Below are positions 2,510 through 22,700 of a stretch of DNA of 29,292 bases, one piece after another (within the stretch, counting starts at the first letter, position 1; each line of letters opens with the position of its first letter). Source of the stretch: Bifidobacterium breve. GTDB lineage: Bacteria; Actinomycetota; Actinomycetes; UBA12327. The notes under the pieces were generated by a model. It saw nothing but the letters and a program-made list of their open reading frames with translations. It ran no database searches and was not told where the DNA came from. Where the stretch lies: positions 1 through 29,292 of the forward strand of contig CAMCVY010000001.1 in NCBI GenBank assembly GCA_945881995.1, in the 5' to 3' direction. Position numbers and translations under genes: made by a program.

Positions 2510-2520
2510 GGAGAACTCAC

Positions 2521-3273: not shown

Positions 3274-4695
3274 TTAGTTAGTCAACAAAGGGGTGTCAAC
3301 GGGTGCAACCCGGTAGCACCCCTTTGTTGTGCGGTCCTTCAGTGTGCAGGTGTCGTCCCACGTGATCTGACGTAGTGCTGTCGCACCGGCGTATTGGCCT
3401 TGATTCCAGCTGGACCCGTAAGCAACAGCGGAACTGTAGGTAGTTCCCAACGACCACATGGCGTCTTTGAATGCATTGGGAGTCACGTTCTTAGGGGCCT
3501 TATCGAGGGCCGCCTTGAGCAAGAGAGTGGCATCGCAGAACTGCAAAATGATGCGGTAGTTTTCGCGGTTTCCTTCAGGCGGGTTAGCGCCAGCCGCATC
3601 AACAATTTGCTTGCACACACCTTCATTCGGTCGAGCCGGATCCGGGAATGGGAGGGTCGAGGAGTCGCTCCGGTTATCTGATGAGGGAGAGAATCCAAGC
3701 CCAAGCATCCCAATACGACTTTTCCCAACGATGGTTTCGGGGTTGTCGACGAAGAACGCAGGGTTGTCGTATGAGGAGATGGTGTACTTCGCTGTTAGTT
3801 CCTCAGCTTCAGTCGAGGACAAAGCCACTGCCTCAATGCGTTCGCCCCCAAGAGCGATCACTCGGTCTAAGCCCTGGTTTTTTGCACCGGCAAGGGCCGC
3901 TGAGGAGGTGGCACCGAGGGTGCCAATGTTGGAGACGTCAATAAAGAAGTTTGCGGACTTTGTTACGCCAATGCTCTGGAGATAAGGGGTCACGATCGTG
4001 TCGATGGCTCGTCGTGAGACGGCCGCATCGGGGGCAATGACGGCCACTCCTTGTGCGCCATCAAACCAACCGGCTGCCTTCAGATTCGGCAGTAGCGTCT
4101 TGACGTAGGAGTCGAATGGCGGAAGCGACGTGGACCACAGGTAGGGGCTGTAGGCCTGATACTCCTGCTGATCAAGGGGGAGATACGTCTGGTCCAACAT
4201 GATCGCCCGTGCAGATTGATAGCACGGGCGAGCGTTGTTTTGGAATTGGCCATCCATGGCGATGGCAAAGATTTCCGCATCCTGAGTGAAGGCTCGGCAC
4301 TGAGCTTCCGCGTATTCGGGGCTGTCAAGTTGTCCCGTGTAGGGCTTGATAATCGGGTTGAGCTTGCGCCCGCCGGCCCCACCATTGGTATTCACGTAAT
4401 TGACAACCGCCTGGATACCTTTGGTGGTGACATCAAAGCCGCCGTCTTCGACATTTTTAAAGCCTAAATTTTTGGCGATTTCGCCGATGTCAACGACCAG
4501 ATATCCAACATTGACCGTGTCAGCCGAAACACCAGGCGATGGTTGATCCGCAGGACCGCCAGCGGCGCTCGCGTCGCCGCCACTTCCGGCGGCACCGCTA
4601 CTGCTGTTGTTGGAACTACTACATCCCGCAACAAGGGCAGCGCAGGCCAACAAAGCGATGAGTGATCGAGCGATGGTCAAACGTGACGATTGCAC
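3274..4695 (-). CDS. ABC transporter substrate-binding lipoprotein (LivJ/K-like type I periplasmic binding fold), paralog 1
   Basis: Lipobox LVAGC, Ser/Gly linker, PGVSADTVNVG and VNTNGGAGGRKL motifs. RBS GGAGG before GTG 4695. Confidence 0.88.
   Translation of the reverse strand: MQSSRLTIARSLIALLACAALVAGCSSSNNSSSGAAGSGGDASAAGGPADQPSPGVSADTVNVGYLVVDIGEIAKNLGFKNVEDGGFDVTTKGIQAVVNYVNTNGGAGGRKLNPIIKPYTGQLDSPEYAEAQCRAFTQDAEIFAIAMDGQFQNNARPCYQSARAIMLDQTYLPLDQQEYQAYSPYLWSTSLPPFDSYVKTLLPNLKAAGWFDGAQGVAVIAPDAAVSRRAIDTIVTPYLQSIGVTKSANFFIDVSNIGTLGATSSAALAGAKNQGLDRVIALGGERIEAVALSSTEAEELTAKYTISSYDNPAFFVDNPETIVGKSRIGMLGLGFSPSSDNRSDSSTLPFPDPARPNEGVCKQIVDAAGANPPEGNRENYRIILQFCDATLLLKAALDKAPKNVTPNAFKDAMWSLGTTYSSAVAYGSSWNQGQYAGATALRQITWDDTCTLKDRTTKGCYRVAPVDTPLLTN
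3283..3329 (+). terminator. Long hairpin, probable terminator of the plus-strand operon, embedded in the 3' coding end of the convergent SBP gene
   Basis: Perfect 13-bp inverted repeat CAACAAAGGGGTG (3283-3295) / CACCCCTTTGTTG (3317-3329), with inner stem CGGGT-GCA-ACCCG, starting 16 nt after stop 3267. Confidence 0.6.
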
Positions 4696-4716
4696 GGCGT
4701 ACCTCCGCCGCTTACA

Positions 4717-7569
4717 TTACGACACTGTGGCGGTAAATGGACCCGATCTTTCAACTGCGGTCATATCTGCGCCCAAGTACGAGCGCACCACATCGGGGTG
4801 ATTTCGCACGGCATCGGGGGAACCTTCGGCGATGACCGCTCCAAGCTCCATGGCGACCACGCGCTGGGCTAGACGAAAGAGCAGGGGTAGGTCGTGTTCA
4901 ACCACCACCAGGGTGGTTCCCAGATCGCGGTTGACTCCAGTCAGGAGTTGAACCAAACTCTCGCCCTCAGATTGAGCAATTCCACCGGCAGGTTCGTCCA
5001 GCAAGAGAACTTGCGGATCCAGCGCCAGCATGCAGGTGATTTCCACCATGCGACGAGTTCCGGTAGAGAGCTCACCCACGGGCTTGGCTTGCAAATAATC
5101 AAGCCCCATCACTTCCAGGTATTGCATGGCGCGCGCCTTCTTGGCGCGATCAGCCATGGGCAAGCCCAGCAGCGAGCTGGTGACTCCGGTAGGAGCGGTG
5201 CGCTCCATGGCAACCATCACGGTTTCCAGAACGCTCATCGTTGGGTACAACCGAGCGGCTTGGAACGAACGTACGAGACCGAGTTTGGCCCGCGCCTCCG
5301 GCGACAGCTTGGTGATGTCGCGACCGTTGAACACGATGGAACCACTGTCAGGAGCGGTGAAGCCTGCAATAATTTCAAACAACGTGGTTTTGCCGGCGCC
5401 ATTCGGTCCGATGATTCCCAAGATCTCACCAGGCTGGACGGCCAAGTCCACGCCGGCAACGGCCTTGATGCCTCCGAATGAACGCGCTGCGCCCGTGACT
5501 TGAAGGATCGGCGGCAACGCCTGTGGATCAATTCCGACAAACGGGTCGCGGCCAGAGTTTTGCTTCAGTGGCGTCACGTCGATCACGGCTATGCGACGAT
5601 CCTCACCATCGATTTCACCTTCATCAAAGCGAATAGCTGCTTGTGGATCTACACCTTGCAGCCGGGCCAGACCAAAGGCTGCGGAATTGCGCACGCGAAC
5701 GAGGACTCCACCCAGACCGCGCGGAATCAGAACAATGATGATGACGGAGAGCAGGATTAACAAGGGTGGGATGAATGCATTCAGTGTCACTAATTGTGGG
5801 ATGCGGCTGTAGAGCGCACCGATCGCTGGTCCGGGAAGGACACCCAAGCCTCCCAGCACGCTCTGTGAAACCACATCAACGCTGAAGCCACCCTTGAAGT
5901 AATCGGGCGTCAGGGTCGTGACCGAGTTAGCGATGATGACGCCGCCAAGTCCAGCAATTCCACCCGCAATCGCAAAGGTTTGAAGTTTGCGGTACGGCGC
6001 AGCGATCGTGAATGCTCTCGCTGCGTCCTCATTGTCACGCAGTGCACGAAGGACTCGACCCAAACCGGTACGACGGATGTTGGCCGCTATCAAGAAAGCA
6101 ATCACGAGGAACACCAAAGAGAATAGGTAGTAGTTCTTCGGCAAACCGAAGTTGATGTTGAGACCTGAAATTTGCAGTGGGTTAACGCGAATTCCAGAGG
6201 CGGTGGGGCCGATGAGAATCTCTTGGCGCAGCAACCACGATGAGGTAGCAAACGAGAAGGCAAGGGTGCTCACAGCTAGGGCAAGCCCGCGCAGTCGAAG
6301 GGCGGGAATTCCGACCAACGCCGAGACGATGGCGCCAACAACTACACCAGCCAGTAGCCCAAGAAAGAATTGTCCTGTCGCGGCTGACACCTTGACGGCA
6401 ACGGTGCCCGCGATGGCGGCAAAGGCGAATTGACCCAAGGAGAGTTGACCAGCAACTCCGGTTAGCACGCCTACGGACAAGCCCACGATGGTGAAGCCAA
6501 CGGCGAACGTCAAAATCGTGGCCGTCTTATTGGTTACGGTCAGGCCGATATACACCGCAAAGGCCAAAGCGATGACCGAGATGAGCGGAGTAATCAGGCG
6601 AACAGTGAAGAGCCGGCGAATTTGGGTGGGCAACTGGGGTGGATACAACTTGTTCCATTCACCGCGGTCTTCGTCACGACGCGAAGAAAGTTTTGGCTGG
6701 AGGAGCAAACCAGCAAAGACCACGATGACCAAGGCAAGTTGGGGCAAGCCGGGCAAGTTTTGATTGCTGGCCAAGACCTGGGCCGCGACTCCAATCCCAA
6801 CTGACGAGAAGAAGGCGATGGGCAAACTTTGGAAGCGGCCAAGGACAGCGCCCGCTAGCGGCAGTACCAGAAGCGATGGGCCGAGGAAATCCTTGTCTGG
6901 CAAGTTGATCGTCGGGTAGACCAAGATCACAGAGAACGCCGCGATAGCACCAGCGATTCCCCAGGACAAGGTGACCATGCGGCTTGCCGACACTCCAGCC
7001 AAGGAAGCCGCATCGGGGTTATCCGCAGCCGCTCGAATTGCTAGTCCGTAACGCGATCGGCGAAGGAACAGTGTCAGCGCGAGCAGAACGAATGGGGCGA
7101 GCAAAACGATGGCGACAAAAGAGGGTTGGATGGTCGTCGCGCCTAGTTTCAGGCCAGTGAGGAACTCCGGTAGCGCTGGCTTGGGGAACAAGCGACCGGA
7201 TGCGTTGCTTTGGTTAATCACCAAGCCAAAAATGATCAGGAATTGGGCTAGACCCAGAGTGACAACGGTTCCAAGCACGCGGGGGGCGTCTGAAATTCGG
7301 CGCACAAATCCCCATTCGACACCGGCGGCGATGAGCGCTCCGGCCAAGATGCCGACCGGGAACATCAGCCAGTAGGGCAGTCCCTGTTTAGCAACGATGG
7401 CACCGAAGATGGAAGCGGCGAAAATTCCGATAGCCACGTGGGCGAAGTTGATGAACCGGCTAGCGCGGTACACCAGTACGAGTCCGATAGACAAGAGCCC
7501 GTAGAGGAACCCCGTGAAGAGTCCACTCAAAATGTTGGGGAACGAAAGGTCGAATCCACCGAGGTTCAT
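4717..7569 (-). CDS. Fused branched-chain-amino-acid-type ABC permease-permease-ATPase (LivH-LivM-LivG)
   Basis: LivH motifs (GLVLVYRASRFINFAH, YGLAIRAAADNPDAASLAGV). LivM motifs (GQLSLGQFAF, LRLRGLALAVSTL, RALRDNEDAA). ATPase motifs GPNGAGKT, LSTGTRR, LLLDEP, VEHD. Confidence 0.93.
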   Translation of the reverse strand: MNLGGFDLSFPNILSGLFTGFLYGLLSIGLVLVYRASRFINFAHVAIGIFAASIFGAIVAKQGLPYWLMFPVGILAGALIAAGVEWGFVRRISDAPRVLGTVVTLGLAQFLIIFGLVINQSNASGRLFPKPALPEFLTGLKLGATTIQPSFVAIVLLAPFVLLALTLFLRRSRYGLAIRAAADNPDAASLAGVSASRMVTLSWGIAGAIAAFSVILVYPTINLPDKDFLGPSLLVLPLAGAVLGRFQSLPIAFFSSVGIGVAAQVLASNQNLPGLPQLALVIVVFAGLLLQPKLSSRRDEDRGEWNKLYPPQLPTQIRRLFTVRLITPLISVIALAFAVYIGLTVTNKTATILTFAVGFTIVGLSVGVLTGVAGQLSLGQFAFAAIAGTVAVKVSAATGQFFLGLLAGVVVGAIVSALVGIPALRLRGLALAVSTLAFSFATSSWLLRQEILIGPTASGIRVNPLQISGLNINFGLPKNYYLFSLVFLVIAFLIAANIRRTGLGRVLRALRDNEDAARAFTIAAPYRKLQTFAIAGGIAGLGGVIIANSVTTLTPDYFKGGFSVDVVSQSVLGGLGVLPGPAIGALYSRIPQLVTLNAFIPPLLILLSVIIIVLIPRGLGGVLVRVRNSAAFGLARLQGVDPQAAIRFDEGEIDGEDRRIAVIDVTPLKQNSGRDPFVGIDPQALPPILQVTGAARSFGGIKAVAGVDLAVQPGEILGIIGPNGAGKTTLFEIIAGFTAPDSGSIVFNGRDITKLSPEARAKLGLVRSFQAARLYPTMSVLETVMVAMERTAPTGVTSSLLGLPMADRAKKARAMQYLEVMGLDYLQAKPVGELSTGTRRMVEITCMLALDPQVLLLDEPAGGIAQSEGESLVQLLTGVNRDLGTTLVVVEHDLPLLFRLAQRVVAMELGAVIAEGSPDAVRNHPDVVRSYLGADMTAVERSGPFTATVS

Positions 7570-9791
7570 GCGGGGCTCCCAGACTCATCAAGGGTGACGG
7601 GATTGGCGTCGGCGGTAGTTGGATGGCCACCCAGGCTCAAGGCTTGCACGAGTTCCGGCTGGGCGAGGAGGTCCTTGGCGTTTCCTTCGTAGACGATCTC
7701 GCCCTTTTCCATGAAGTAACAGCGGTCCACCAAGTTGAGGGCGACGTTGACTGATTGCTCAACAACCAGGACGGCAGTGCCTCGTGCGTTGAGTTGACGC
7801 ACCATTTCCAAAAGCTCGCCCACCACAATGGGGGCCAGTCCGAGGGAAAACTCATCAACAACCAAGACTTTCGGCTTGGTTATCAGCGCCTTGGACAGAC
7901 CGAGCATCTGTTGCTCGCCACCACTGAGGGTCGAGCCCAATTGATTGCGACGGTCGGCAATCTTGGGAAAGACTTGGAAGGCTTCGTCGATGCCTTCTTT
8001 AATGCTGGCTCGATCGCGCCCCAAACTAAAGCCGTACATCAGGAGGTTTTCGTAGACCGTCATCGAGCCGAACACTGCGTTGCCACCCACAATTTGGGAC
8101 AAGCCAAGGGCCACTCGCTTGCTGGCGTTAATGTCCGTGACGTTGTCACCGGCAAGGCGAACGACTCCAGCTTGGGGGGATTCCAATCCGGAAAGTACTC
8201 GAAGCAAGGTGGTCTTACCCACTCCGTTAGGGCCAAGGAGCGCAACCATCTCGCCTTCGTTAACCCGCATGGATACATCAAAGAGAACCTGCACAGATCC
8301 GTAGGCGAAATCAATGTTGCGGGCCGAAAGTACGGGAACCGCGCCGGATTCAGCTACGGCTTCATCAAAGTCTTGAGTTTCATCTTCGACGCCAAGACGA
8401 GCATCAAGGTCAGGCCCCACGGCACGAATGAGCTTCTTGGACCGACGCCAAAACAAAATCATCGGCAAACTTGCTACAGTGAAGGCGACTGCGTAGGCAG
8501 CGCTGCCACCGATGATCGCACTCACGGCGCTGATCACCAGAAGTGCAAGGAGTGAACCGCCGATCGTTGAAAACAGAGATATTCCTACTGCCGTGGGCCG
8601 GTCCTCGGGCTGAATAACCGAGAGCATCGTGATGTCGAGAGCAACCCAGGCGAGGAATCCACCGATCGTTGCCAAGGCGAGTTGCGGCGAGATAACAGGG
8701 CGTACGAGTCCGATCAGTAACAGTCCGGCAAACCCGATTATCAGGCCAACGGGGATGACGGCTGCTAGTGCTTCAGGTGAGCGGCGAACAGACTTTTCTA
8801 AGCCACGCGCTACGAGGTAGAGCGTAAGGAATGCAACAGCGCTGGCGATGGTGATGACGAGCGCTGCGGTGCCCTCTTTGAGTTCGCGTGCTTGCGCAAG
8901 ACGAATGACGGGAACGATCAAAGCTGCCCCTGCACACCAGCCAACGGCCACGTAAGAGGTGAGGGCAAATTTTACGGTCGGGATTGATCGCACGCGCAGC
9001 GTGGATTCGGACCACGAGGGGCGCAAGCCGGCGACGGGATCATCAACTTGACCCATAGCGCGACGCAGACGATCTGGTTCTGCTCCGCCTACCTTTGTCT
9101 CGGTCAGGAGCAACGAGCCCAAGGACAGGACGACTGCCAAGATTCCGGAGAGGAGCAGTGCCTGGCTAGCGCCAATATCGATGCCAGCAATCGCGATCCA
9201 AGCGCACGCACCACCTAATGCGCTCCCGATCAGGGTGCCCATGTGCGTGCGGGCAATGGCTCGGGCGCGGGCTTCAGGCACGGTCGAGTCGAAGGCCAGA
9301 GTGCGCCAGATAGGAGCGCCGAGTCCAAATAAAACGCCACGAGCCAGCGCCACCAACAGGAACCAGCCAAATGCCGGGATGAGGTTCATTAATAGCGCAA
9401 AGACGGCTGAGTTCACCGCGAAGATCACGGAGGCCGCGGTACGACGATTGAAGGGAACGCGGTCGCTAAGCGGCGCACCGACAAGTCCGGCCAAGATGGC
9501 CGCTGCGATGACAGTTCCGCCCACGGTGGTGGTGGTCCAGTTGTTATCGCGTGCGATTTCAGGGGAAAGTAAGAGCAAGGTAGTCAGAGGGAGCGCGACC
9601 GAAGCATTGATGAGAGAGAGCCCGAGAACTCGTCGTCGCGCGCTAGTAGGTACCGCAACTTTCCACTTGGGGATGGTGATGTCCCCGCTAATACCCACGG
9701 CAGTCCGCGCCGCGTCACGTACCGACGCTTCCAGGGTTGGAACCTCGTCTACCCCAACATCTGTTGGGCTAGTTGGTAGCGAACGGGACAT
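7566..9791 (-). CDS. MFS-like membrane domain fused to LivF-type ABC ATPase
   Basis: N-terminal ~440 aa multi-TM region with motif-A-like GAPLSDRVPFNRR. C-terminal GPNGVGKT, LSGGEQQM, VVDEFSLGLAP, VEQ. Start uncertain (ATG 9791 with GAGG upstream, or GTG 9797). Stop overlaps the next start (ATGA). Confidence 0.88.
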   Translation of the reverse strand: MSRSLPTSPTDVGVDEVPTLEASVRDAARTAVGISGDITIPKWKVAVPTSARRRVLGLSLINASVALPLTTLLLLSPEIARDNNWTTTTVGGTVIAAAILAGLVGAPLSDRVPFNRRTAASVIFAVNSAVFALLMNLIPAFGWFLLVALARGVLFGLGAPIWRTLAFDSTVPEARARAIARTHMGTLIGSALGGACAWIAIAGIDIGASQALLLSGILAVVLSLGSLLLTETKVGGAEPDRLRRAMGQVDDPVAGLRPSWSESTLRVRSIPTVKFALTSYVAVGWCAGAALIVPVIRLAQARELKEGTAALVITIASAVAFLTLYLVARGLEKSVRRSPEALAAVIPVGLIIGFAGLLLIGLVRPVISPQLALATIGGFLAWVALDITMLSVIQPEDRPTAVGISLFSTIGGSLLALLVISAVSAIIGGSAAYAVAFTVASLPMILFWRRSKKLIRAVGPDLDARLGVEDETQDFDEAVAESGAVPVLSARNIDFAYGSVQVLFDVSMRVNEGEMVALLGPNGVGKTTLLRVLSGLESPQAGVVRLAGDNVTDINASKRVALGLSQIVGGNAVFGSMTVYENLLMYGFSLGRDRASIKEGIDEAFQVFPKIADRRNQLGSTLSGGEQQMLGLSKALITKPKVLVVDEFSLGLAPIVVGELLEMVRQLNARGTAVLVVEQSVNVALNLVDRCYFMEKGEIVYEGNAKDLLAQPELVQALSLGGHPTTADANPVTLDESGSPA

Positions 9792-11208
9792 TCCCACCTC
9801 GGTATAAGAAGCACCCGGGCTTGCCGGATACGGGGTTTAGGCAGGTCGTTGATTCGTAAACAAGGACTCGACCAGTGTTGCTAGCCGCGTACTGCCCGTT
9901 ACCGATTGACCCGCCGAACGTAACAGCAGAACTGTATCCGTTCCCGACCTGCCATGCCGCATCGCGGAAGGCGTTAGCCGTGAGGTCCTTCGGGGCCTTG
10001 TCGATGACGGCCTTGAGGAACAAGTTGGCATCGCAGTACTGCAAGCCTTCCTTGTAATTGGGGCGCACACCGTCGGGCGGGGTAGCTCCGGCTGAATCGA
10101 TAATTTGCTTGCAGAGCCCCTGATTGGGGGTGGCCGGGTCTGGGAACGGAATAGCTGGATCTAGGCGGATGTCACCAGCAGGCAAGACGCCAAAGCCGAT
10201 CATGCCGGTCAGTGTGGTGTCGACGATGGTCGCCGGGTTGTCTTGTAAGAACAGCGGACTGTCATAGGAGGAAATCGCAAACTTTGCCTTCGACGTAGTG
10301 GCTTCTTGGCTGGACAACATGATGGGCAAGATCCGCGCACCACCAACGACGATGACGCGGTCCAGGCCGGAGTTAGCTGCACCCGTGAGCGCGGCAGATG
10401 AACCAGCGCCAAGGGTTCCTATATTGGCGGTATCAACAAAGAAGTTTTCAGACTTGGTGATGCCGTTGGCAGCGAAGAAGGGCTGCACGACCTCCGTGAT
10501 GTTGCGTCGAGCAATTTCGTTGTCCACTCCAACAACGGCAACGCCCGCTGAGCCGTTGAACCACCCCTGGTCCTTGAGCGCGTTCAATTCCGTACGCAGG
10601 TAGGCGCCATATTCAGGCCAGCTAGGCGACCATAGGTAGGGGGAAAACTTCTCGAATTCCTTTTGATCTTGGGCGAAAAGGGACTCATCCAACATGATCG
10701 TCTTGCGTGCGAAATAGCACGGGCGCGCGTTGTTTTGGAACTGTCCTTCAAGGACAACCGCGAAAACTTGATCATCCTGGGTGAAAGCGTTGCAAAACGA
10801 TTCAGCGTATTCGGGGTTGTCAAGACCGCCGCCGTACTTCTTAATGATGGGGACGATCTTGCGTCCATTGAGGCCACCGTTGGCATTGACTGCATTAACG
10901 GAGGCTTGAATTTGCTTGATCACTCCATCGGCGCCACCGTAGTTCGCGGTCTTGAAGCCTAAGGATTCTTGGAGTTCGCCCAAGTCAGGGACGATGTAGC
11001 CGATTTTGATCGAGTCCGCGGTTACACCAGGGGACGCATCATCTGCACCTGCTGCCGCGCCCGATCCCGAGCTTCCTGATCCGGCAGGAGAGTCAGCCTC
11101 CGACCCGCATCCAGCCGAGAGCGTGGCGATGAGTGCCAGGGCGGCCAGAGCAGCGACCGCTCGAGTCCAGCTACCGCGAGAAGTCACGACTGAGGATGCC
11201 GGAGACAT
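9769..11208 (-). CDS. ABC transporter substrate-binding lipoprotein, paralog 2
   Basis: Lipobox LSAGC and PGVTADSIKIG. Collinear with 3274-4695 over its whole length (shared GQFQNNARPCY, NIGTLGA, PFPDPA). Confidence 0.88.
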   Translation of the reverse strand: MSPASSVVTSRGSWTRAVAALAALALIATLSAGCGSEADSPAGSGSSGSGAAAGADDASPGVTADSIKIGYIVPDLGELQESLGFKTANYGGADGVIKQIQASVNAVNANGGLNGRKIVPIIKKYGGGLDNPEYAESFCNAFTQDDQVFAVVLEGQFQNNARPCYFARKTIMLDESLFAQDQKEFEKFSPYLWSPSWPEYGAYLRTELNALKDQGWFNGSAGVAVVGVDNEIARRNITEVVQPFFAANGITKSENFFVDTANIGTLGAGSSAALTGAANSGLDRVIVVGGARILPIMLSSQEATTSKAKFAISSYDSPLFLQDNPATIVDTTLTGMIGFGVLPAGDIRLDPAIPFPDPATPNQGLCKQIIDSAGATPPDGVRPNYKEGLQYCDANLFLKAVIDKAPKDLTANAFRDAAWQVGNGYSSAVTFGGSIGNGQYAASNTGRVLVYESTTCLNPVSGKPGCFLYRGGNVPFATN

Positions 11209-11311
11209 AGGGAGTGAGCGTCCTTTGTGGGGCAGTAGGGAAGTGGCCGAGCGCAGTAGAGAGCGTCGTCGTTGTCACGGCGTCTCGTGGTCCGTCTGAT
11301 GTGCTCTTCTT

Positions 11312-11340
11312 AGACTAAGCCGGGCAGGCGCAAGCGTCAA
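11312..11340 (-). promoter_or_regulatory. Sigma70/HrdB-type promoter of the ABC operon
   Basis: Minus strand TTGACG (11340-11335), 17 nt, TAGTCT (11317-11312). The -10 lies within the palindrome CTTAG-A-CTAAG (11309-11319). Confidence 0.65.
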
Positions 11341-11402
11341 CGACGTTGGTCGACACCGATTTCGCACAATCCCTTATCGGTGAAAGGTAAACGGCCTATG
11401 GG

Positions 11403-11432
11403 TTGACGCTGAACGATGCCTGAATCTATTGT
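11403..11432 (+). promoter_or_regulatory. Sigma70/HrdB-type promoter of the DUF916 operon
   Basis: TTGACG (11403-11408), 18 nt, TATTGT (11427-11432), back-to-back with the minus-strand promoter. Confidence 0.55.
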
Positions 11433-11576
11433 TCACATGCCGGAACGTTAGGCGTTGCCTGATGCTTCACATTGCAGTGTTTCTTCCCCTCATCTGGTGT
11501 TGTGGTGTGGTGGGCGGAAACGCGACAATGGCCTTGCCCACCTCGTTCCTGACGAGCCGTTGAATGGATACACAGC

Positions 11577-12593
11577 GTGACGCGTGGTTCAGTTTTGCGA
11601 TTGACATCTTCAATTGCTGCAGTTGCGTTTGTCACTACAGGTTTGTTACCGATGGCACAAGCGGCTGACAACGGAGCATGGTCTGCGGCCCCCACGAAGC
11701 AAGGCACATTTACCGCTCGCCAATATTTCTTTCTCGAATTATCTCCCGGTGCCACGGTTAAAGATTCGGTAACCGTGAAGAATGCTGGCCAAGTCGCGCA
11801 GGTACTCGATCTTTATCCAGCTGATGCATTCAACGTGGAAAGCGGCGCAGGCTTTGCGCTGCGCAAGCGAGGCGATAAGAACACTGACGTCGGTTCCTGG
11901 ATCACTCTGGATAAAACACGCGTTGAGGTTCCCCCGGGTGGAAGCGTGAGTGTTCCGTTTACCCTCACGGTCCCTAAGGGTGTGACGCCCGGCGACCATG
12001 CCGGTGGTGTGGTCACGATTGAGCCGGCTCCAGCCCCCAGTGGTGATAACAGCCAGATTCAAATCCAGCGAGCGTTGGGCGTACGCACCTATGTGCGTAT
12101 TGCTGGCCCCCTGACACCTGCTCTATCCATCACCAAGGTGGACCTTAAGGTGCGCCCCGCCCGGCTTCCATTTATTGGTCAGCAAGGTGGCGCCACGGTC
12201 ACCTATTCGGTGCGCAACAGCGGCAACGTTCGATTGACGGCGGATCGCATCATCACACTTGATGGACTATTCGGTCGAACTTTGCGCAACACCGGGCGAG
12301 GCCCGATTCCTGAAATCCTGCCCGGGTCAACGGTTGTTCTCACCGAGAGTTTCACCAAGATGCCGGTGCTCAATCAAGTGACAGCAAATGTGCGCTTGAT
12401 TGCAGCGGACGGCAAGGTCGATACGTCGGGATCAGCTACTGCGCTTGCTGTGTCATGGGTCTTCTTGTTCTTGTTGCTGCTAATTATTGTGGGCATTGTG
12501 TTGGCGGTCTTGTGGTCACGACGTGAATCAAACTTGGTGAGCCAGATGGCCGCCGATGCGGGTCCGTTGTCACCCACAGGAGACCAACTGTGA
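11577..12593 (+). CDS. DUF916 / WxL-interacting-protein-like surface protein with C-terminal TM anchor
   Basis: Signal peptide ending AQA. RQYFFLELSPGATVKDSVTVKN, LDLYPADAFN, DVGSWITL, VPFTLTVP..PGDHAGGVV and VRNSGNVRL motifs. Hydrophobic C-terminal helix followed by SRR. Confidence 0.82.
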   Translation: MTRGSVLRLTSSIAAVAFVTTGLLPMAQAADNGAWSAAPTKQGTFTARQYFFLELSPGATVKDSVTVKNAGQVAQVLDLYPADAFNVESGAGFALRKRGDKNTDVGSWITLDKTRVEVPPGGSVSVPFTLTVPKGVTPGDHAGGVVTIEPAPAPSGDNSQIQIQRALGVRTYVRIAGPLTPALSITKVDLKVRPARLPFIGQQGGATVTYSVRNSGNVRLTADRIITLDGLFGRTLRNTGRGPIPEILPGSTVVLTESFTKMPVLNQVTANVRLIAADGKVDTSGSATALAVSWVFLFLLLLIIVGIVLAVLWSRRESNLVSQMAADAGPLSPTGDQL

Positions 12594-13885
12594 ACCGTCG
12601 CACCACAGCAGTCGCAGGATCGCTGGCCGCCGGGTTCGTTGCCTTGATGCTGGCCGGGCTGTCGACGGTGGCCCAGGCCGCCGATCCAATTCCCGGTGCG
12701 GGCACCACGGTGGGAACTGTTACTGATCCAGCAAATCCTTTCGCCCAACCAGGTCCGACCGGTCGTACAGCTACTGTCTCCCCACCTATCGCGAAGATCG
12801 GCGATTCGGTCATTGTGACCGGATCTGCTTGGCCAGCAGGCTCCTTGGTCTCTGTCGCGGTGTGTGGCAATAACTATCTGAATGGTTCTTCTGATTGCGA
12901 ACCCACTGGTCAGGGCCAGACCAGCGCAAATGCAAACGGTGAGATTGCCGTTCAGGTTGCACTGCCGGCCTTGCCTCCATCACCGTGTCCTTGTGTTGTT
13001 CACCTTGCGACGCTGGCGGACACCAACACGGTGGACGTTCCGTTCACCATCACGGGTGCACCCACTGCAGTTCCATCGCAGACGGTTAACCGTCGTTCGG
13101 TCGATGTGTCGGCACGCCTTACCGGCAGTGGCCCATTTGCCGCTTACCTCGGTGGAGCAGCAAAGCGTGAACTTGTCGTCTCTGTAACAAATACTGGCTC
13201 GTCGAACTTGATTAATCCTGCCCTGAACCTGACAGTGGGCCGCGGTGAAAATCCCGCTACCCCGCTCACCAGCCCCAACGGTCAACAACCGGCGTTAGGA
13301 ACGATTGCGCCGGGCCAGACGGTGGAGTATCGCCAAAGCGTCACTCTCGGCCCGCCGGCTTTTGGCCAGTACCGGGTCAAGGGCGAGTTCATTGGTCTGG
13401 ACTTGATCACTGTTGATCAACAAAACGTGAACGCGGGAGTTCTTAGTTTCTCTGTCGCGACCTCTAGTTACCCCTGGCTCTTGATTTTGATTGCGTGGCT
13501 CTTGCTACAGATTCCGCTCTTAGGTCTGTACAAGCGCCGCCCAGTGGAGAAACCGTTGAGTGAAGACCCACTCATTGAGCAACTTCCCGTTGCCTCGGGT
13601 GCTCCAGGCTTTGGTGTGAGCGCGTTTGATCCCACACCTGCCATGGCAGGTGCCCCGGTAGCGCTGGCTGCTGCAGTGGCTCGACCAGTGGTTGACACTC
13701 CCGCTCCGCCGCCGCCACCCGGTTACCGAGCCATTCAGCCAGCTTCTGCCACACCTCCGCCAGCGCCGTTGCCACCGATGCCAGCGGCACCAGGCGAAGC
13801 GCCAAGTGCGGTTCCTGCACCTTCCACGCCGGCTCCCGCGGGTGTGGAAGCTCTGCGTGCGTTGTTGCAGCCACCCGCGCAGTAA
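12590..13885 (+). CDS. Membrane-anchored protein with neocarzinostatin-apoprotein-like domain, Ig-like domain and Pro-rich tail
   Basis: Signal peptide ending AQA. ATVSP..GDSVIVTGSAWPAGSLVSVAVC...DCEP...ANANG...CPCVV follows the chromoprotein apoprotein pattern. TM WLLILIAWLLLQIPLLGLY followed by KRR. GTGA overlap with the upstream gene. Confidence 0.75.
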   Translation: MNRRTTAVAGSLAAGFVALMLAGLSTVAQAADPIPGAGTTVGTVTDPANPFAQPGPTGRTATVSPPIAKIGDSVIVTGSAWPAGSLVSVAVCGNNYLNGSSDCEPTGQGQTSANANGEIAVQVALPALPPSPCPCVVHLATLADTNTVDVPFTITGAPTAVPSQTVNRRSVDVSARLTGSGPFAAYLGGAAKRELVVSVTNTGSSNLINPALNLTVGRGENPATPLTSPNGQQPALGTIAPGQTVEYRQSVTLGPPAFGQYRVKGEFIGLDLITVDQQNVNAGVLSFSVATSSYPWLLILIAWLLLQIPLLGLYKRRPVEKPLSEDPLIEQLPVASGAPGFGVSAFDPTPAMAGAPVALAAAVARPVVDTPAPPPPPGYRAIQPASATPPPAPLPPMPAAPGEAPSAVPAPSTPAPAGVEALRALLQPPAQ

Positions 13886-13889
13886 CGCG

Positions 13890-14588
13890 CTAGACGCTCT
13901 GCAGCAGGAGTTCCGCAACGTTTGTTGCGTTAGTTAGCGCACTGTCATGCGGTCCAACCATGACCTCGTAAGGAAGACCACTTTCGTCCAGTCGAATCCG
14001 CGTGAGTTGACACGGAAATGTAGGGGGAGTGTCAGAGAAAAACACGTAGCGGGCCGCAACGTCATTCGCGGCAGGATTTTCCAACATGACGGGTTCGAGT
14101 GACGGACCAAGTGGTGTGGGAACGAGGCGGGTGTTCACAAAGTCCGCGAGGGATGGATCAAGGAAACCTTGTTCGGTGCCTACGGGCCTGGCTGGGATGC
14201 TCATGGCCGGGTCCAGGTTCTCTGGTGGCGCCGGCGAGCCGGGCGGATTGAGGTCCACACCTCGCTCCCCATTGCGCGGCACTACCGCATCAAGATACAC
14301 AACGGCCGAGACTTTCTCTGCACGCACCTCAAGAACACATCGGCACACCAAGCCAGCCTGACTATGCGCGACGAGGATCACTGATTCGTCCTGTGCGTCA
14401 ATGGCCGCGACCACGTCCGCAACCCACTCGCCGAGCCCAATTGCGGTACCGACTCGGTCTGAGTGTGGTTCGCAACCAGTCAACGTCGGGGCAATGACCG
14501 TGTGGCCGGCTGATGTAAGTAAAGGCGCCAACTGATCCCACGCCCAACCACCACGAAATGCACCATGGACTAAGACGAAAGTCGCCAT
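13890..14588 (-). CDS. Alpha/beta hydrolase, methylesterase/salicylate-esterase-like
   Basis: FVLVHGAFRGGWAW, nucleophile elbow AHSQAG, VYLDA, C-terminal GPHD (catalytic His). Confidence 0.9.
   Translation of the reverse strand: MATFVLVHGAFRGGWAWDQLAPLLTSAGHTVIAPTLTGCEPHSDRVGTAIGLGEWVADVVAAIDAQDESVILVAHSQAGLVCRCVLEVRAEKVSAVVYLDAVVPRNGERGVDLNPPGSPAPPENLDPAMSIPARPVGTEQGFLDPSLADFVNTRLVPTPLGPSLEPVMLENPAANDVAARYVFFSDTPPTFPCQLTRIRLDESGLPYEVMVGPHDSALTNATNVAELLLQSV
13914..13935 (+). terminator. Possible terminator inside the 3' end of the convergent hydrolase gene
   Basis: CGCAAC-GTTT-GTTGCG followed by TTAGTT, ~30 nt after stop 13885. The stem is short. Confidence 0.3.
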
Positions 14589-14927
14589 TTAGTTCAGCGC
14601 ATCCGCAACGTCGTTGCTGGGCCCAGTGTCAAGTACCACGTCAACGAATTCACGAGGGTAGGACTCGTAGGGCTTCATGTGTTCGTACATCTTTTCCGTG
14701 TAAGCCACATACCCTTCGCGCTGCGTGCATTCGAGGTAAGAGTCAACCTTGTCGAAAAAGCGCATGTTCATAAAGTGGGTGCGATCTTCTTGGCCGCGTA
14801 CGAGCACTCGACGAATAAAGCCAGGGTGGTCGTCAAAGAATTGTGCGAAGCCTTCAGAGAAATTGATGTACGCGTCCGCGTGCTCCTCAGCGTCGATAGT
14901 CCACGCATGCGAGATCACAATAACCAT
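14589..14927 (-). CDS. Antibiotic biosynthesis monooxygenase (ABM/Dabb-fold) family protein
   Basis: 112 aa with HPGFIRRVLVRG..D...F pattern. Stop directly abuts the hydrolase ATG (TAAATG). Confidence 0.75.
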   Translation of the reverse strand: MVIVISHAWTIDAEEHADAYINFSEGFAQFFDDHPGFIRRVLVRGQEDRTHFMNMRFFDKVDSYLECTQREGYVAYTEKMYEHMKPYESYPREFVDVVLDTGPSNDVADALN

Positions 14928-14934
14928 GCAATGG

Positions 14935-14940
14935 ATAGTA
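14935..14940 (-). promoter_or_regulatory. -10 element implying a leaderless ABM-hydrolase mRNA
   Basis: Minus-strand TACTAT lies 7 nt upstream of ATG 14927. No Shine-Dalgarno sequence is present. Confidence 0.5.
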
Positions 14941-14964
14941 CGCGAGTAAATCGTTGGCGGGAGG

Positions 14965-16263
14965 TTATGCCAACGTGATGGTCATGATGGCGGTGTAGCG
15001 GTCGGCCGACTGGAAGGCGGGAACGGTCAAAGTCAGGGCTGAGGTGACGTTGTACACCCCGCCAGTTGTTCCGGTGGTGAGGTTTTCATCGGTGTTCTTC
15101 GTGCACAGACTTACCGTGCCCGAGAAGCTCTGGGCGCTGCTTCCGGCCGATTGACCAGGAGCGACCAAACTGGAATCAAAGCCGGAAATGGCGGTCTTGC
15201 TCGACGCGGAGTAATCCCATGCGGTGCCGTTGGTGGCCGCGGCACAACCAGGAGTTGCCGCCAAGGTGGATTTAGCCATGGACTTTCCGGTTGCGCTCGT
15301 GAAGTTAGTCAAAGTAGCCGTGAGTGACCAGCCGTAGCTACCACCGCGTGTGTCAGAAACGGTGATGTCGTTCAGTGTTCCGCTGATTGGCGCGGGAGCA
15401 AGCGGAGAGGTAATGGTTCCCAGGTTGACACTGGTCGCATTGCTATTCGCGTTTGATGTTCCCAGCACCGGTGTGGTCGTTCCCGATCCATCCGCGGACC
15501 CACTGGTTGACGTGGTGTTGGTGTAGGTGCGCTGAGTGAGTTGGCCCTGGAGCACGCTCAATCGAACGATTTGATCGGTAGTGCACCCGGCCCCACCGGT
15601 GGTGTCACCCGTCTGTGCGATGCAGTTGCTGCTGGGTGAAGCCGGCACGACACCGGCAATCGTGGTGCGTGCTCCGTAAGCGGTTGATGTTTGTGGGGTG
15701 CAGGCGACTTGCGCTCCCACCAAGTTGGCGTCATCTGCGGCCACGAAGGTGTACTTAAACAACGCGGGTACAAATTCGAGCTTGTCACCAGCAACAAATG
15801 TGGTGGGCGCTCCAGTTCCCGTTGTGGTTGGCACACTGATGGTTACCGGGATGGGTGCGCTGACCGAGCCGCCGATGGAGATCGTTGTGGAGGAACCAGT
15901 GGCTCCGGTACCAGTCGCGTTGAACAGGGCTGAGCCACTTTGTTTGCGAATATCAATGGTGGGTTCGGCACGAACTTGTGCACCGGTGATCGCAAACGGC
16001 AAACTGGCATTCACGCTGGGGAAGTCGTAGGTCACTGAGATCGCTGATCCTGCGTCGGACATTTCCGGCGCGGTCATGGTGACTGAGTAATTAGTGATAC
16101 CCAAGTCGTAGGAAGCGGCCAGTGATGGTGCGTTAAAAGCGCAGACGAACGGCACCGAAATAGTGGCCGCTCCAGCCTGCTGTGCAGAACTAATGCTGAG
16201 TCCTGTGGCTGCAAGGAGGCCTACAAGGGCTGCGGCGATTCGGCGAGATAGGGAGCGCTTCAT
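14965..16263 (-). CDS. Secreted protein with C-terminal WxL-like domain
   Basis: Signal peptide ending AGA. ITVSDTRGGSYGWSLTATLTNF and terminal LTLTVPAFQSADRYTAIMTITLA match the WxL pattern (D-x-R-G...GW-x-L; L-x-VP...Y...LTWTL), with WTL replaced by ITL. Confidence 0.78.
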   Translation of the reverse strand: MKRSLSRRIAAALVGLLAATGLSISSAQQAGAATISVPFVCAFNAPSLAASYDLGITNYSVTMTAPEMSDAGSAISVTYDFPSVNASLPFAITGAQVRAEPTIDIRKQSGSALFNATGTGATGSSTTISIGGSVSAPIPVTISVPTTTGTGAPTTFVAGDKLEFVPALFKYTFVAADDANLVGAQVACTPQTSTAYGARTTIAGVVPASPSSNCIAQTGDTTGGAGCTTDQIVRLSVLQGQLTQRTYTNTTSTSGSADGSGTTTPVLGTSNANSNATSVNLGTITSPLAPAPISGTLNDITVSDTRGGSYGWSLTATLTNFTSATGKSMAKSTLAATPGCAAATNGTAWDYSASSKTAISGFDSSLVAPGQSAGSSAQSFSGTVSLCTKNTDENLTTGTTGGVYNVTSALTLTVPAFQSADRYTAIMTITLA

Positions 16264-17084
16264 CAGCTCGGGCCCACCTCCCCTAGGAGCACGCGCTTGA
16301 GGAATTCAGGGGCCACGGTGGTGCAATAGTGCGCGCCCTCGAAGTAGGGGGCTGTTGATGAATTGCTGTTGGCAACCAGCGCACGCGAGCCGATTTCCGC
16401 CACCGCACCATTGGTGTTGATAGCAGCCACTGGGGGAGTCCACGACGGGCCTACACCCACGACGGTGTCGGCGACGGTCACCAAGGTGTTGGCACTGGCG
16501 CCGGGCAGATTGGACGCGGTGGGGTTGTACGGAGCGGCGTTCTTTTGCGTGTTGGTGAGCGATCCCCACACGCTGTCGATGGTGTTTTGGTTGATCGCTT
16601 GGCAGGTGCCGTCGGTGGAAGGCGACGTACTGAGTCCGTCACCGGCGCTACCAAATCCCCATGCTGGTTCAACAATGAAGCGACCATTGCCGAAGGTGGT
16701 TCCGGCGGGCCAGTTGCCCTTGTTCAAGCTCTCACCGGTGCGCATCTTGCAGCGGATCAATTTGGGCTTGGTTAGATCATTGTTTTCGTATTGCACATAC
16801 GCGGTGGTGGAAATTTTCTTCGCTGACGTTACGACCGCAGATTTGGAGAAAACAAAGTCAGATTCGTCCTTGTACACGGTTCCGGTGATGGTGAAGTCAC
16901 CACCGTTTTCCACCAATTTCGATGTATCAATGTTGGCGATGCCGATCTGGCCCTCAGCACAAAATCGGAAAAAGCCCGTTGACGTGATAATCGTCCCAGG
17001 GATAGGAGCCGCACCAGAGAGCGCAGGCACGGCGAGGATCGCCGTGATGCCCAAAAGCACGATCGTGAGTCGGCGGCGGCGCAC
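16263..17084 (-). CDS. Secreted hypothetical protein with four Cys
   Basis: MRRRR plus hydrophobic signal peptide. RBS AGGGGA. Stop overlaps the WxL-like start (TGATG). Confidence 0.75.
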   Translation of the reverse strand: MRRRRLTIVLLGITAILAVPALSGAAPIPGTIITSTGFFRFCAEGQIGIANIDTSKLVENGGDFTITGTVYKDESDFVFSKSAVVTSAKKISTTAYVQYENNDLTKPKLIRCKMRTGESLNKGNWPAGTTFGNGRFIVEPAWGFGSAGDGLSTSPSTDGTCQAINQNTIDSVWGSLTNTQKNAAPYNPTASNLPGASANTLVTVADTVVGVGPSWTPPVAAINTNGAVAEIGSRALVANSNSSTAPYFEGAHYCTTVAPEFLKRVLLGEVGPS

Positions 17085-19666: not shown

Positions 19667-19748
19667 GTAAGCCCTACACACGACGAATCCCCTGTGTTGA
19701 AGTTGGAGGTAATAGTTATTCGCTTCTAATGCATTGAGGGATCTTGAC

Positions 19749-22700
19749 ATGGGTATGAACCGACGAATCGTTGGAATTGTTGCTGTCACTGCTGTCATGG
19801 CGGCGACGCTCGTGCCGCTGGGGGCGAGTACCGCACAGGCGGCACCGGTTGGTAATGGCTTCACCCTCACCGTCCCCGACCTGCAATTCATCCTTGACCA
19901 AATTGAGATTGCAGAAGCACATAAGGCAGCCGACAAGCCAGCGACGTGCACAACCGTCGAAGGGCTCACGGTCGCAAACTGCGCCGTCCCTGGCACGAAC
20001 CCCTACGTCCGTGGATCCTTAGTCACCACAGACCTCGCTGACCCTCGCCTCGTGGACGGGTTGCGTCAAACCGATGGTCGCAACAACAACTTGGTAAACG
20101 GTTTTTCGCCCTGGAATGGTGTGCGCTACACATCCAGCCCAGGTCAGTCCGCCTGGGGATCAGCAGACTCAGCCTTCCCCCGTGATACGCCCGAAACCTG
20201 GCGCTTGACCGACACCACCAACAATTCCTTCGGCCCCGTTGGTTCGACCTACAACCCTTCGTCGCGACCAAAGAACTTGGTTGACCCACAACCTCGAGTG
20301 ATTAGCAACTTGATCTCTGATCAATCTGCCTACAACCCAGCCGCCGTTGCTGCCGCTGGTGCTGACATCAGTGGCCTGACCACTGACCAGCAAAAGCAGG
20401 ACACCCAGCTTTTGATTGAAAACATTGCTCCCGACGCCGGACAGTCGGCTCCGTATAACGGAATGTTCACTATCTTTGGTCAATTCTTTGACCACGGCTT
20501 GGACTTGGTCGGCAAGACCAGTGCTGAAGCTGTCTTCATTCCGTTGAAGTCAGATGACCCGTTGTATCGTGAAGGTGCACGCAACAACTTCATGGTTTTG
20601 AACCGCACGGTTTTGGACGCGAATAATGCTGGCACCAACACCACGACTCCGTGGGTTGATCAAAACCAGACATACACCTCTGCTCCATCCCACCAAGTGT
20701 TCTTGCGCGGTTATGGCTGTGGTGATGCTTCTTCGACGACGGCAAATTGCGCCCCGGGGTCAGCCCCCGTTGCGACCGGTGATTTCCTTGACGGTGCCAT
20801 CACACACAACTTGGCGAACTGGAGCGAGATCAAAGCGCAAGCTGCCAACAAGTTGGGTATTGCACTGACTGATTATGACGTCACGAATGTTCCGCTTCTT
20901 GCAACCGACGAGTTTGGTCGCTTCCTTCGCGGCCCCAATGGATTCCCACTTGTCGTTTTGAAGAACGGCACGTTGCTGGAAGGAAATCCTGCCTCGCCCA
21001 TCGAGACCGTCAACTTCGCCAATGTGGCTAAGCCCGAGGACCTTATTCAACGCACGGACCATGCGTTCCTTGATGACATCGCTCATGGAGCCGGACCGAA
21101 GTGGGCCTGGAATGGCTCAGCGTGGGCTGCTACCCATAACGCAGCCTTGCTCAACAGGCACTTCGTCACCGGCGATGGTCGAGGTAACGAAAACATCGCG
21201 CTAACCGCGATTCACACGGTCTTCCACAATGAGCACAACCGCCTGGTCGATGACATCAAGTCGGTCGTCACCGCCAATCAGGGTGCCGTTGCTGGTGCAG
21301 GCAAATTCGCGTTTGAGGACTGGCGAGTGGGCAACTCCGCTGGTGCGGAGTTCAATGGTGAGCGTTTGTTCCAAGCAGCGCGCTTCATCAACGAAATGGA
21401 ATACCAGCACTTGGTGTTTGAGGAATTCGTTCGCAAGGTGCAGCCAGAAACCCGTTTATTCGGTAGCTATGACCCATCCTTGAACCCCAACATTGTTGCG
21501 GAATTTGCTAACGCAACGTATCGCTACGGGCACTCGCAGTTGAATGAGACGGTTGACCGAATTGCGGCTGACGGTACGGACACTTCTATCTCCCTCATCG
21601 ATGCATTCCTGGATCCGGATGACTTCAACAATGTCGATGGGCAAGTGCTCACCGGTGACCAAGCGGTCGGACAAATTGCGCGTGGAATGACCAATCAGCG
21701 TGGTAACGAAATAGATGAGTTCGTCACAGGGGCATTGAAAAACAGCTTGCTCGGTTTGCCGCTCGACTTGGGTGCCTTGAACATGTCGCGAGGTCGCGAC
21801 ACCGGCATGCCCTCGCTAAATGGTGCTCGCCGCTCGTATTACGACACGACCGCAGACGCTTCAATGACTCCTTATGGCTCGTGGCTCGAATTTGGGCAAG
21901 CATTGCGCCACCCCGCTTCGTTGATCAACTTTGTGGCTGCCTACGGGACCCACCCATCTGTTACTGCGGCCACAACGGTTGCGGACAAGCGTGCAGCCGC
22001 AACCTTGTTGGTCAAGGGTGGTCTTGGAGAGCCTGCTGATAGTGCCGAGTTCATGACCAGCCAAGGTGCGTGGATTCCGGTCAACGACCTAGCGACCACG
22101 GGCTTAGAAGACATTGACTTGTGGATCGGTGGACTGGCTGAGCAGCGCACGCCGGCTGGCGGAATGCTCGGAGCCACTAATGACTTCATCTTCCGCACAC
22201 AGATGGAAAAGCTCCAAGAGAGTGACCGTTTTTACTACCTCGCTCGCATTCCTGGCATCGGGCTGCTCAACCAAATTGAAGGCAACTCACTTGCTGAAAT
22301 CATTCAGCGCAACTCCGATGCTGAAGATTTGCCATTCAACATCTTCGATGTACCTTCAAAAACCTTTAATATGTCGAAGTCCTCGCTGACTTACCCCGAT
22401 ATCAGTGTGAAGCCCGACGGCACTTGGGCGTACTCCGGCTCAGATCACGTGGTGTTTAACGGAACTGCCGGCAACGACGGCGTCTCATCGGGTTCGGGTA
22501 ACGACACGATTCGCGGCAACGACGGCGATGACACGATCAACGGTGGATACGGGGATGACAGCATCATCGGTGGATTGGGTGATGACACGTTGACCGACCC
22601 ATCGGGCATTGACGTGGTGATGTCAGGCGATGGCAGCGACTTCATTAACACTGGAGGACCTGGGCTGGATGTTTACCTTGCAGGTGCAGGATCGGACTTC

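Follow-up and report, generated by a model that had tools for sequence, protein, structure and literature searches.

Do the WxL and DUF916 proteins of an actinobacterium build a surface fibre, or do they hold a cargo protein at the membrane? The question is raised by six genes, P0001 to P0006, which occupy positions 11577-17084 of a 29,292-nucleotide stretch of contig CAMCVY010000001.1 (assembly GCA_945881995.1; the whole stretch is called the window here), exactly where a reading of the sequence alone had placed them. WxL clusters are commonly treated as a trait of the lactic acid bacteria and their relatives. The sequence-only reading had assigned these genes to a WxL/DUF916 system outside Lactobacillus, Enterococcus and Listeria, which is borne out by Pfam matches to PF06030 and PF13731 in this Actinomycetota genome, and had proposed a pilus-like fibre as the product. 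We find that the locus is a diverged, pilin-less and sortase-free variant of the WxL/WxL-interacting protein (WxLIP) system in Actinomycetota. It is likely, if far from certain, that this cell-envelope system tethers a single cargo protein to a membrane anchor by strand complementation. Family memberships, fold, synteny and the predicted interface are directly supported.

The DUF916 protein, the WxL protein and their predicted contact

P0001 (11577-12593, plus strand; 338 aa) is a WxLIP (DUF916) homologue with a signal peptide, two immunoglobulin (Ig)-like domains, a C-terminal membrane helix and a short cytoplasmic tail. Its residues 46-146 match PF06030 (WxLIP_PGBD/DUF916) at 33.9 bits (cut-off 27.3; E 3.7e-8), and the same family matches 51 of its 53 homologues. 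The AlphaFold2 model built from the alignment of these 53 proteins (pLDDT 90.5) consists of two beta-sandwich, Ig-like domains and a C-terminal helix. The membrane helix is encoded at 12456-12530 (plus strand); the helix of the model covers residues 294-327, and the hydrophobic stretch, at about 283-318, is followed by basic residues. When this model was searched with Foldseek, the WxLIP of Enterococcus faecium came out on top (9i1y and 9i25_C; E about 1e-12, best 6e-13), followed by the chaperones of chaperone-usher systems. VIA-align gave Z 19.1 for 9i25_C (235 residues, root-mean-square deviation 4.7, both domains) and 18.0 for 9i1y_A, against 12.2 for CsuC, 11.8 for CfaA, about 11 for FimC and 10.8 for Caf1M. 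The family profile of P0001 also found 9i25_C among the PDB sequences (E 8e-4). Judging from the modelled fold, P0001 looks like a membrane-bound, chaperone-like partner, which is the role of chaperone or anchor that had been suggested for it; it does resemble the chaperone-usher chaperones in Foldseek, as had been anticipated, though less than it resembles the WxLIP.

P0005 (14965-16263, minus strand; 432 aa) is a WxL protein with an N-terminal cargo domain. It matches the WxL family PF13731 over residues 298-431 at 29.6 bits (cut-off 25; E 8.6e-7), and at 33 bits in the genome search, in agreement with the WxL-like protein that had been read on this strand. The WxL domain spans about residues 232-432 (14968-15570, minus strand), and residues 421-432 (14968-15003, minus strand) form its last strand, which ends in YTAIMTITLA. 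The first Trp-x-Leu motif is present as GWSL (residues 311-314), and its Trp is invariant in 12 actinobacterial WxL domains. A comparison of P0005 with the PDB sequences returned nothing meaningful. The N-terminal domain (15613-16167, minus strand; residues 33-217) is possibly DUF6801-like and carries a probable C41-C188 disulfide. Both of these cysteines are conserved in five orthologues; the other four pair within the WxL region, and do so also in proteins with other N-domains. Since C41 is conserved together with C188 and the other four cysteines pair elsewhere, the N-terminal strand of P0005 is probably locked into its own N-domain, which by this conservation pattern C41 and C188 probably staple. 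An assignment of the domain to DUF6801 was considered and set aside, being an Atlas lead only (0.88), with no Pfam match at E up to 1.

The P0001 ectodomain and the P0005 WxL domain were modelled together in three runs, with three controls. The complex scored 0.83 (0.80, 0.84 and 0.83 in the individual runs) versus 0.01 for the best control, and it passed a mark that 58 of 80 solved complexes reach, as do 2 of 110 mismatched pairs. Between runs, at least 81% of the contacts agree, with a partner pLDDT of at least 76. In the model, residues 157-170 of P0001 lie against residues 421-432 of P0005. Because P0001 161, 163, 165 and 166 touch P0005 425, 427, 429 and 430 in that order, the strands are parallel. 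The predicted donor strand (12045-12086, plus strand) belongs to the junction of the two P0001 domains; I161 and I163 would be buried in the WxL domain, with I161 touching residues across its core. R170, Y172, R174 and G177, at and just beyond the end of this strand, are invariant in the 53 homologues. The WxL-DUF916 interaction expected from the sequence is thus predicted, between P0001 strand 159-169 and YTAIMTITL, with the latter as the last strand of the acceptor. In silico, a WxLIP strand would complete the WxL fold. The same parallel donor-strand topology is described for a chaperone-bound WxL protein, the ElrE-bound ElrD of Enterococcus faecalis (10.64898/2026.10.17.759780), and an AlphaFold prediction in PMC10599100 agrees with it as well.

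Tether, fibre or importer accessory

How might this contact be used by the cell? The P0001 strand at about residues 159-169, at the junction of the Ig domains, would insert into the incomplete beta-sandwich of the P0005 WxL domain and lie parallel to its last strand YTAIMTITL, a donor-strand complementation like that of ElrE and ElrD in E. faecalis. P0005 would bear its N-terminal, disulfide-stapled domain as cargo. The end state, we infer, would be a 'tip without a shaft', in which a single cargo protein is tethered to the membrane by its anchor, and no polymer, because there is no small WxL pilin and no evident subunit with a free donor strand. The genome holds three DUF916 genes in all (P0001 and those on contigs C30 and C33) and six WxL-domain open reading frames (ORFs), all of at least 432 aa (446-1198 aa as open frames in the genome search). 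No small WxL ORF is found in the assembly, although at 93.7% completeness a pilin might lie on unassembled DNA. As had been seen from the sequence, no LPxTG sorting signal occurs in P0001, P0002, P0005 or P0006, and the locus contains no sortase. The two sortase-like genes of the genome are confined to contigs C60 and C33, and the one on C33 encodes no Cys. The pilus-like fibre of the sequence-only reading finds no support in this analysis, which turned up no subunit whose N-terminal donor strand is free. The likeness to CS1 and spore-coat-U pilins that it saw in YTAIMTITL is likewise unsupported as a sign of kinship: the six proteins gave no Pfam match, at E up to 1, to the PapD_N, spore-coat-U, fimbrial subunit or usher families. 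Actinobacterial WxL domains share this last strand across the whole family, and the resemblance to those pilins is therefore mechanistic, without shared ancestry.

Several points weigh against a tether of this kind. The binding of P0005 by P0001 is a prediction, and because the homologous complex 9i25 had already been solved (released January 2026), the passed model indicates likeness and does not prove binding; the pass may reflect that likeness, or memory. The second domain expected of a WxLIP, PF11797 (DUF3324/WxLIP_HBD), was found neither in P0001 nor, at E up to 1, elsewhere in the genome, and it matched none of the 53 homologues (0/53). A second Ig-like domain does occupy its position in P0001 and aligns with the solved WxLIP, so the counterpart of PF11797 is seen in structure only. 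The second Trp-x-Leu motif is likewise absent from P0005, where the last strand reads YTAIMTITLA. Among the 12 aligned actinobacterial WxL domains, the 11 that retain a last strand all lack a Trp at that position (11/11; the twelfth ends earlier) and follow the pattern Y-x-x-x-[ILM]-T-[ILF]-T-[LI]. In addition, P0005 may polymerise through its own N-terminal strand, and the two-domain anchor may be too short to span the cell wall, which makes surface display uncertain. Finally, support for expression is thin. The P0001 and P0002 genes are partly covered by short contigs from two lake metatranscriptomes of one study; two of these contigs cross the gene junction, and DNA carry-over could account for them; no such contig falls on the minus-strand genes, which says nothing about the expression of these.

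One alternative is a donor-strand-exchange pilus, with P0001 priming P0005 or another WxL protein for assembly into a sortase-independent fibre. E. faecalis assembles a pilus of this type with its homologous Elr system, one large E. faecium WxL adhesin has been modelled as fibre-integrated (10.64898/2026.10.17.759780), and small WxL ORFs (166-195 aa) adjoin DUF916 genes in other Actinomycetota. Within the locus, the predicted P0001-P0005 interface has the parallel topology of a chaperone, and the mature N-terminus of P0005 has alternating hydrophobic residues. We nevertheless think a pilus unlikely, given a genome with no small WxL protein, no anchor or terminator subunit found, and an N-terminal strand in P0005 that departs from the published donor-strand consensus and holds Cys41, conserved with Cys188 of the same N-domain. 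At the other extreme, the locus could be two unrelated operons that happen to face each other, with WxL and DUF916 proteins that do not cooperate. The two genes are indeed on opposite strands, and in one genome of the same family (G007) the genes resembling P0005 and P0006 are not on the contig of the DUF916 gene, which there forms a canonical pair with a WxL gene of its own. Because of this separation, WxL proteins may be served in trans. We give the idea of unrelated operons hardly any credence. Two further genomes of the genus retain a nine-gene block, as does one from a second genus in the family, at 57-98% identity. The four envelope genes occur together in three genomes of this family (G002, G004, G006) and in G015 of a second family, which supports the earlier view that the two convergent halves belong together. 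In G015 two copies of P0006 are followed by the WxL gene, and opposite them stand a transporter, a P0002 homologue and DUF916; ABM and esterase genes are missing there. The convergent split is thus conserved in this family and one other. Elsewhere in the phylum WxL and DUF916 genes are adjacent almost everywhere, and the model of the complex passed its controls.

The genomic neighbourhood suggests another possibility, namely that the WxL, DUF916 and P0002 proteins form an envelope accessory of an ATP-binding cassette (ABC) importer, a device for substrate capture or scaffolding and no adhesin. Upstream of the locus (3274-11208) are the genes of a LIV-type ABC importer. Its two binding proteins are paralogues, and it has two fusion proteins, one of a permease and an ATPase (950 aa) and one of a major facilitator superfamily protein and an ATPase (743 aa). 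The same unusual importer stands beside DUF916 and P0002-like genes in this family, G015 and Nocardioides cavernae; the Nocardioides genes for WxL, DUF916, the P0002 homologue, the binding protein and ABC components lie on one strand with overlaps or short gaps. Contig C33 of the present genome also groups a DUF916-like gene with genes for a Cys-less sortase-like protein and an ABC ATPase. However, most of the surveyed actinobacterial WxL-DUF916 loci have no such importer nearby, for example that of Streptomyces avermitilis, and the adjacency in three related lineages may be inherited gene order. On balance an importer accessory seems improbable to us. The same doubt applies to a broader proposal. 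In it, strand-complementation WxL systems would be ancient and widespread in Actinomycetota and not peculiar to Bacillota; in this streamlined freshwater lineage they would have turned into a pilin-less, sortase-free device, with the WxLIP and its paralogue P0002 holding envelope cargo and working with the LIV-type importer as a machine for nutrient capture or signalling. A strand-complemented tether of one cargo to its membrane anchor remains our preferred interpretation.

Accessory proteins and genomic setting

The two envelope proteins other than P0001 and P0005 are putative accessory subunits, present in certain lineages only. P0002 (12590-13885, plus strand; 431 aa) is a single-pass membrane protein with a neocarzinostatin (NCS)-like Ig head, a second Ig domain and a proline-rich cytoplasmic tail. 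It had been described from the sequence as a neocarzinostatin-fold transmembrane protein. The NCS-like Ig head, with four conserved Cys, and the one membrane helix are upheld; membership of the family is not, as residues 70-125 match PF00960 at 18.7 bits, under the cut-off of 25 (19.1 versus 86 for NCBIfam). In hhalign, P0002 176-313 aligns with P0001 189-311 (probability 94.9%, E 4e-8), and this match makes P0002 a paralogue of the second WxLIP domain and membrane helix, topped by a different head. The membrane helix and the motif at the C-terminal cytoplasmic end are strongly conserved, and the N-terminal extension is variable among homologues. P0002 was also considered as an ElrB-like terminator donating T-V-G-T-V-T, and was rejected: that stretch is unconserved, and conservation resumes only with the first strand of the NCS-like domain.

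P0006 (16263-17084, minus strand; 273 aa) is a secreted globular alpha/beta protein with four invariant Cys, as the secreted four-Cys protein of the sequence-only reading turned out to be. It has no Pfam family. Its AlphaFold2 model (pLDDT 89.8) is a globular alpha/beta fold, with the N-terminus as a helix within it. The family is small: a search of 1.8 billion proteins gave 210 representatives at E up to 0.001. No solved fold was recovered: Foldseek gave nothing below E 0.29 in the PDB, the best Z of a wide VIA search was 3.7, and Atlas features gave no usable match. The AlphaFold database shows the fold again in alpha/beta-hydrolase fold-5 proteins from bacteria and eukaryotes, where it forms the C-terminal domain, as it also does in two metagenomic alpha/beta hydrolases. 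Distant standalone relatives in Nocardia and Actinomadura adjoin alpha/beta-hydrolase genes, and an alpha/beta hydrolase (P0003) also closes the operon of P0006 itself. As a candidate strand donor P0006 was rejected; the stretch S-T-G-F-F-R-F fits the published consensus, but it is modelled as a helix in the globular fold and holds an invariant Cys.

The remaining two genes encode proteins with no hydrophobic segment. P0003 (13890-14588, minus strand) is a cytoplasmic alpha/beta hydrolase (PF12697, E 5e-16) and the final gene of the minus-strand unit, and P0004 (14589-14927, minus strand) is a small ABM-like protein with a weak match to PF03992 (16.5 bits, under the cut-off of 23.1). Both are lineage-specific, with no counterpart in the G015 locus. 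These ABM and esterase genes do lie between the two halves, where they had been noted; because they are tightly packed behind P0006 and the WxL gene, they are the tail of the minus-strand unit and no separate insert. On that strand, the stop of P0006 overlaps the start of P0005 by 1 nt (TGATG), P0005 and P0004 are separated by a 37-nt gap, and P0004 and P0003 by 0 nt. On the plus strand, the start of P0002 overlaps the stop of P0001 (GTGA). The two units are convergent with stop codons 4 nt apart, and the ends of the DUF916 and WxL genes, on opposite strands, are 2.4 kb apart, within the 10 kb taken as the limit. A signal-like N-terminus combined with one C-terminal membrane helix is seen in P0001 and P0002; in P0005 and P0006 the N-terminal segment is the only hydrophobic one.

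A divergent intergenic region (11209-11576) separates the LIV-type ABC importer operon on the minus strand from the DUF916 gene on the plus strand. It contains one sigma-70-like site (11403-11432, plus strand), a consensus match only, and the scan for promoters and terminators found fewer such sites in this region than in shuffled sequence. Downstream of the locus are Sua5, a glyoxalase-like gene and a 2038-aa haem peroxidase gene (19734-25850), whose product has animal haem peroxidase, RTX repeat and fibronectin type III domains. At the other end of the window (4-3267), a block of genes encodes a 324-aa protein, a short-chain dehydrogenase/reductase (SDR), a protein of about 230 aa and an arylmalonate-decarboxylase-like protein, and the same block is found at L032 1841-5065 and L033 202-3421. 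It adjoins WxL and ABC genes in Nocardioides, and a P0006-like gene with a hydrolase gene in Nocardia, which hints at a larger conserved neighbourhood.

The assembly amounts to 1.44 Mb, and its close relatives are named as uncultured freshwater Actinomycetota, including 'actinobacterium acAMD-2'. The host lineage is a free-living, streamlined, planktonic actinobacterium of freshwater. A contig of another metagenome-assembled genome labelled 'Bifidobacterium breve' (L036, CALQPL010000014.1) has 94% protein-level identity to the locus and is probably from a mislabelled bin.

Three further contigs of the genome carry related genes. On contig C30 (L027, 5996-11912), a canonical same-strand locus encodes an Ig-like protein (280 aa), a Big_3_5 protein with a WxL domain (691 aa), a DUF916-like protein (362 aa) and another Big_3_5 protein (536 aa) whose end is weakly WxL-like. 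Contig C33 (L028, 7016-11755) has, on one strand, a 357-aa DUF916-like protein at the contig end, secreted proteins of 245 and 356 aa, a 323-aa sortase-like protein and the ABC ATPase; the sortase-like protein is catalytically dead, because it has no cysteine at all. Contig C35 (L029, 6174-9764, minus strand) encodes a 1196-aa RCC1 beta-propeller protein with a C-terminal WxL domain, and no DUF916 match is found on this 11.7-kb contig. The RCC1-WxL protein has the look of a large cargo that is served in trans.

Spread in the phylum and comparison with known systems

How far does this kind of system extend in Actinomycetota? PF06030 matches 28 of 301 sampled genomes of the phylum, 23 of them above the cut-off. 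The actinobacterial DUF916 profile A1 finds 58 of the 301 genomes, about one fifth, in 48 of 204 genera at E up to 1e-10; this count is a floor, and about six of the matches cover domain 2 only. Two unpublished genomes (G041 and G086) count towards both figures; if they are set aside, the tallies become 26/299 for PF06030 and 56/299 for A1, and nothing else reported here depends on these two. The WxL domain was sought in 25 genomes, of which 7 match the Pfam family, none above the cut-off, and 14 match an actinobacterial WxL profile, most matches falling within about 2 kb of a DUF916 match. A search with the full-length alignment recovered 13 loci only. When 28 loci were searched with profiles made for this analysis, the WxL gene was directly upstream of the DUF916 gene on the same strand in 19, with a P0002-like gene next in 7. 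The usual actinobacterial order elsewhere is WxL-DUF916(-P0002-like) on one strand.

Some loci outside the family differ in content. One or two small WxL ORFs (166-195 aa) stand beside the DUF916 gene in L064 (1130-3494), L062 (1427-3072), L053 (8519-11245) and L063 (8462-12513), and these are candidate true pilins. A second cluster in G015 (L024, 4674-14928) has four WxL-domain ORFs with no DUF916 match in 18 kb; two of them, of 98 and 171 aa, appear to be fragments of a single broken gene.

The Elr operon has been reported in Bacillota only, with a small chaperone 'satellite' in Actinomycetota, from a screen that required both PF06030 and PF11797 above their cut-offs (10.64898/2026.10.17.759780). 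Because 0 of 53 homologues of P0001 match PF11797, the actinobacterial family would escape such a screen. Streptomyces homologues are already named 'WxL protein peptidoglycan domain-containing protein' in databases. The WxL papers of 2022 and 2023 leave Actinobacteria unmentioned, and we found no paper describing an actinobacterial WxL locus of this kind, papers on 'WxL domain' and 'Actinobacteria' having been judged by title or the opening of the abstract.

Among the known systems, there is a likeness to the Pam pili of CPR (candidate phyla radiation) bacteria, which are reported to be a donor-strand system without an outer membrane and with operon-encoded chaperone-like proteins, their pilins being given there as CPR-specific (10.64898/2026.03.03.709456). 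No Pam homologue was noticed at the present locus, although no search was aimed at one. The chaperones of chaperone-usher systems (CsuC, CfaA, FimC and Caf1M) share with P0001 the two-domain Ig architecture (Z 10.8-12.2) and the completion of a client fold by a donated strand. However, P0001 is membrane-anchored, its client has a WxL fold instead of the Ig fold of a pilin, and there is neither an usher nor an outer membrane. The likeness is one of mechanism, with no family tie.

Closer still are the WxL clusters of Bacillota. The csc/WxL clusters of E. faecium, Lactobacillus plantarum and Listeria (PMC10599100, PMC1534035) likewise combine one WxLIP with a large WxL protein that has cargo at its N-terminus, in a static 'platform' model. 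The E. faecium WxLIP, solved with a long WxL protein (9i25, 9i1y), is the best structural match of P0001 (Z 19.1). It has only 13-15% sequence identity to it, and the host of the present locus is free-living in freshwater with no host association. An NQIDK-type motif is described as conserved in the Firmicute peptidoglycan-binding domain (PGBD). A planktonic genome of 1.4 Mb that keeps three DUF916 and six WxL genes suggests a role unrelated to animal hosts.

The Elr pilus of E. faecalis (elrABCDE) is also among the closest known systems. Its shaft is built from a small WxL protein that places its free N-terminal strand in the groove of the following subunit (10.64898/2026.10.17.759780). Like the present locus, it combines a membrane-anchored, two-Ig DUF916 protein and a protein with a C-terminal WxL domain within 10 kb, and the junction strand of the chaperone pairs in parallel with the last WxL strand, as predicted here for P0001. 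In contrast to Elr, the locus has no small WxL pilin of the ElrC/D type, no LPxTG terminator (ElrB) and no sortase, the second domain of P0001 has no PF11797 match, and the second Trp-x-Leu motif is replaced in P0005. It adds P0002 and P0006, splits its genes into two convergent units, and belongs to Actinomycetota. What is left is a stripped-down form, an anchor and a cargo with no pilin and no sortase signal, and as such the locus is a simple test case for whether the contact between a WxLIP and a WxL protein is a transient chaperone step or a permanent tether.

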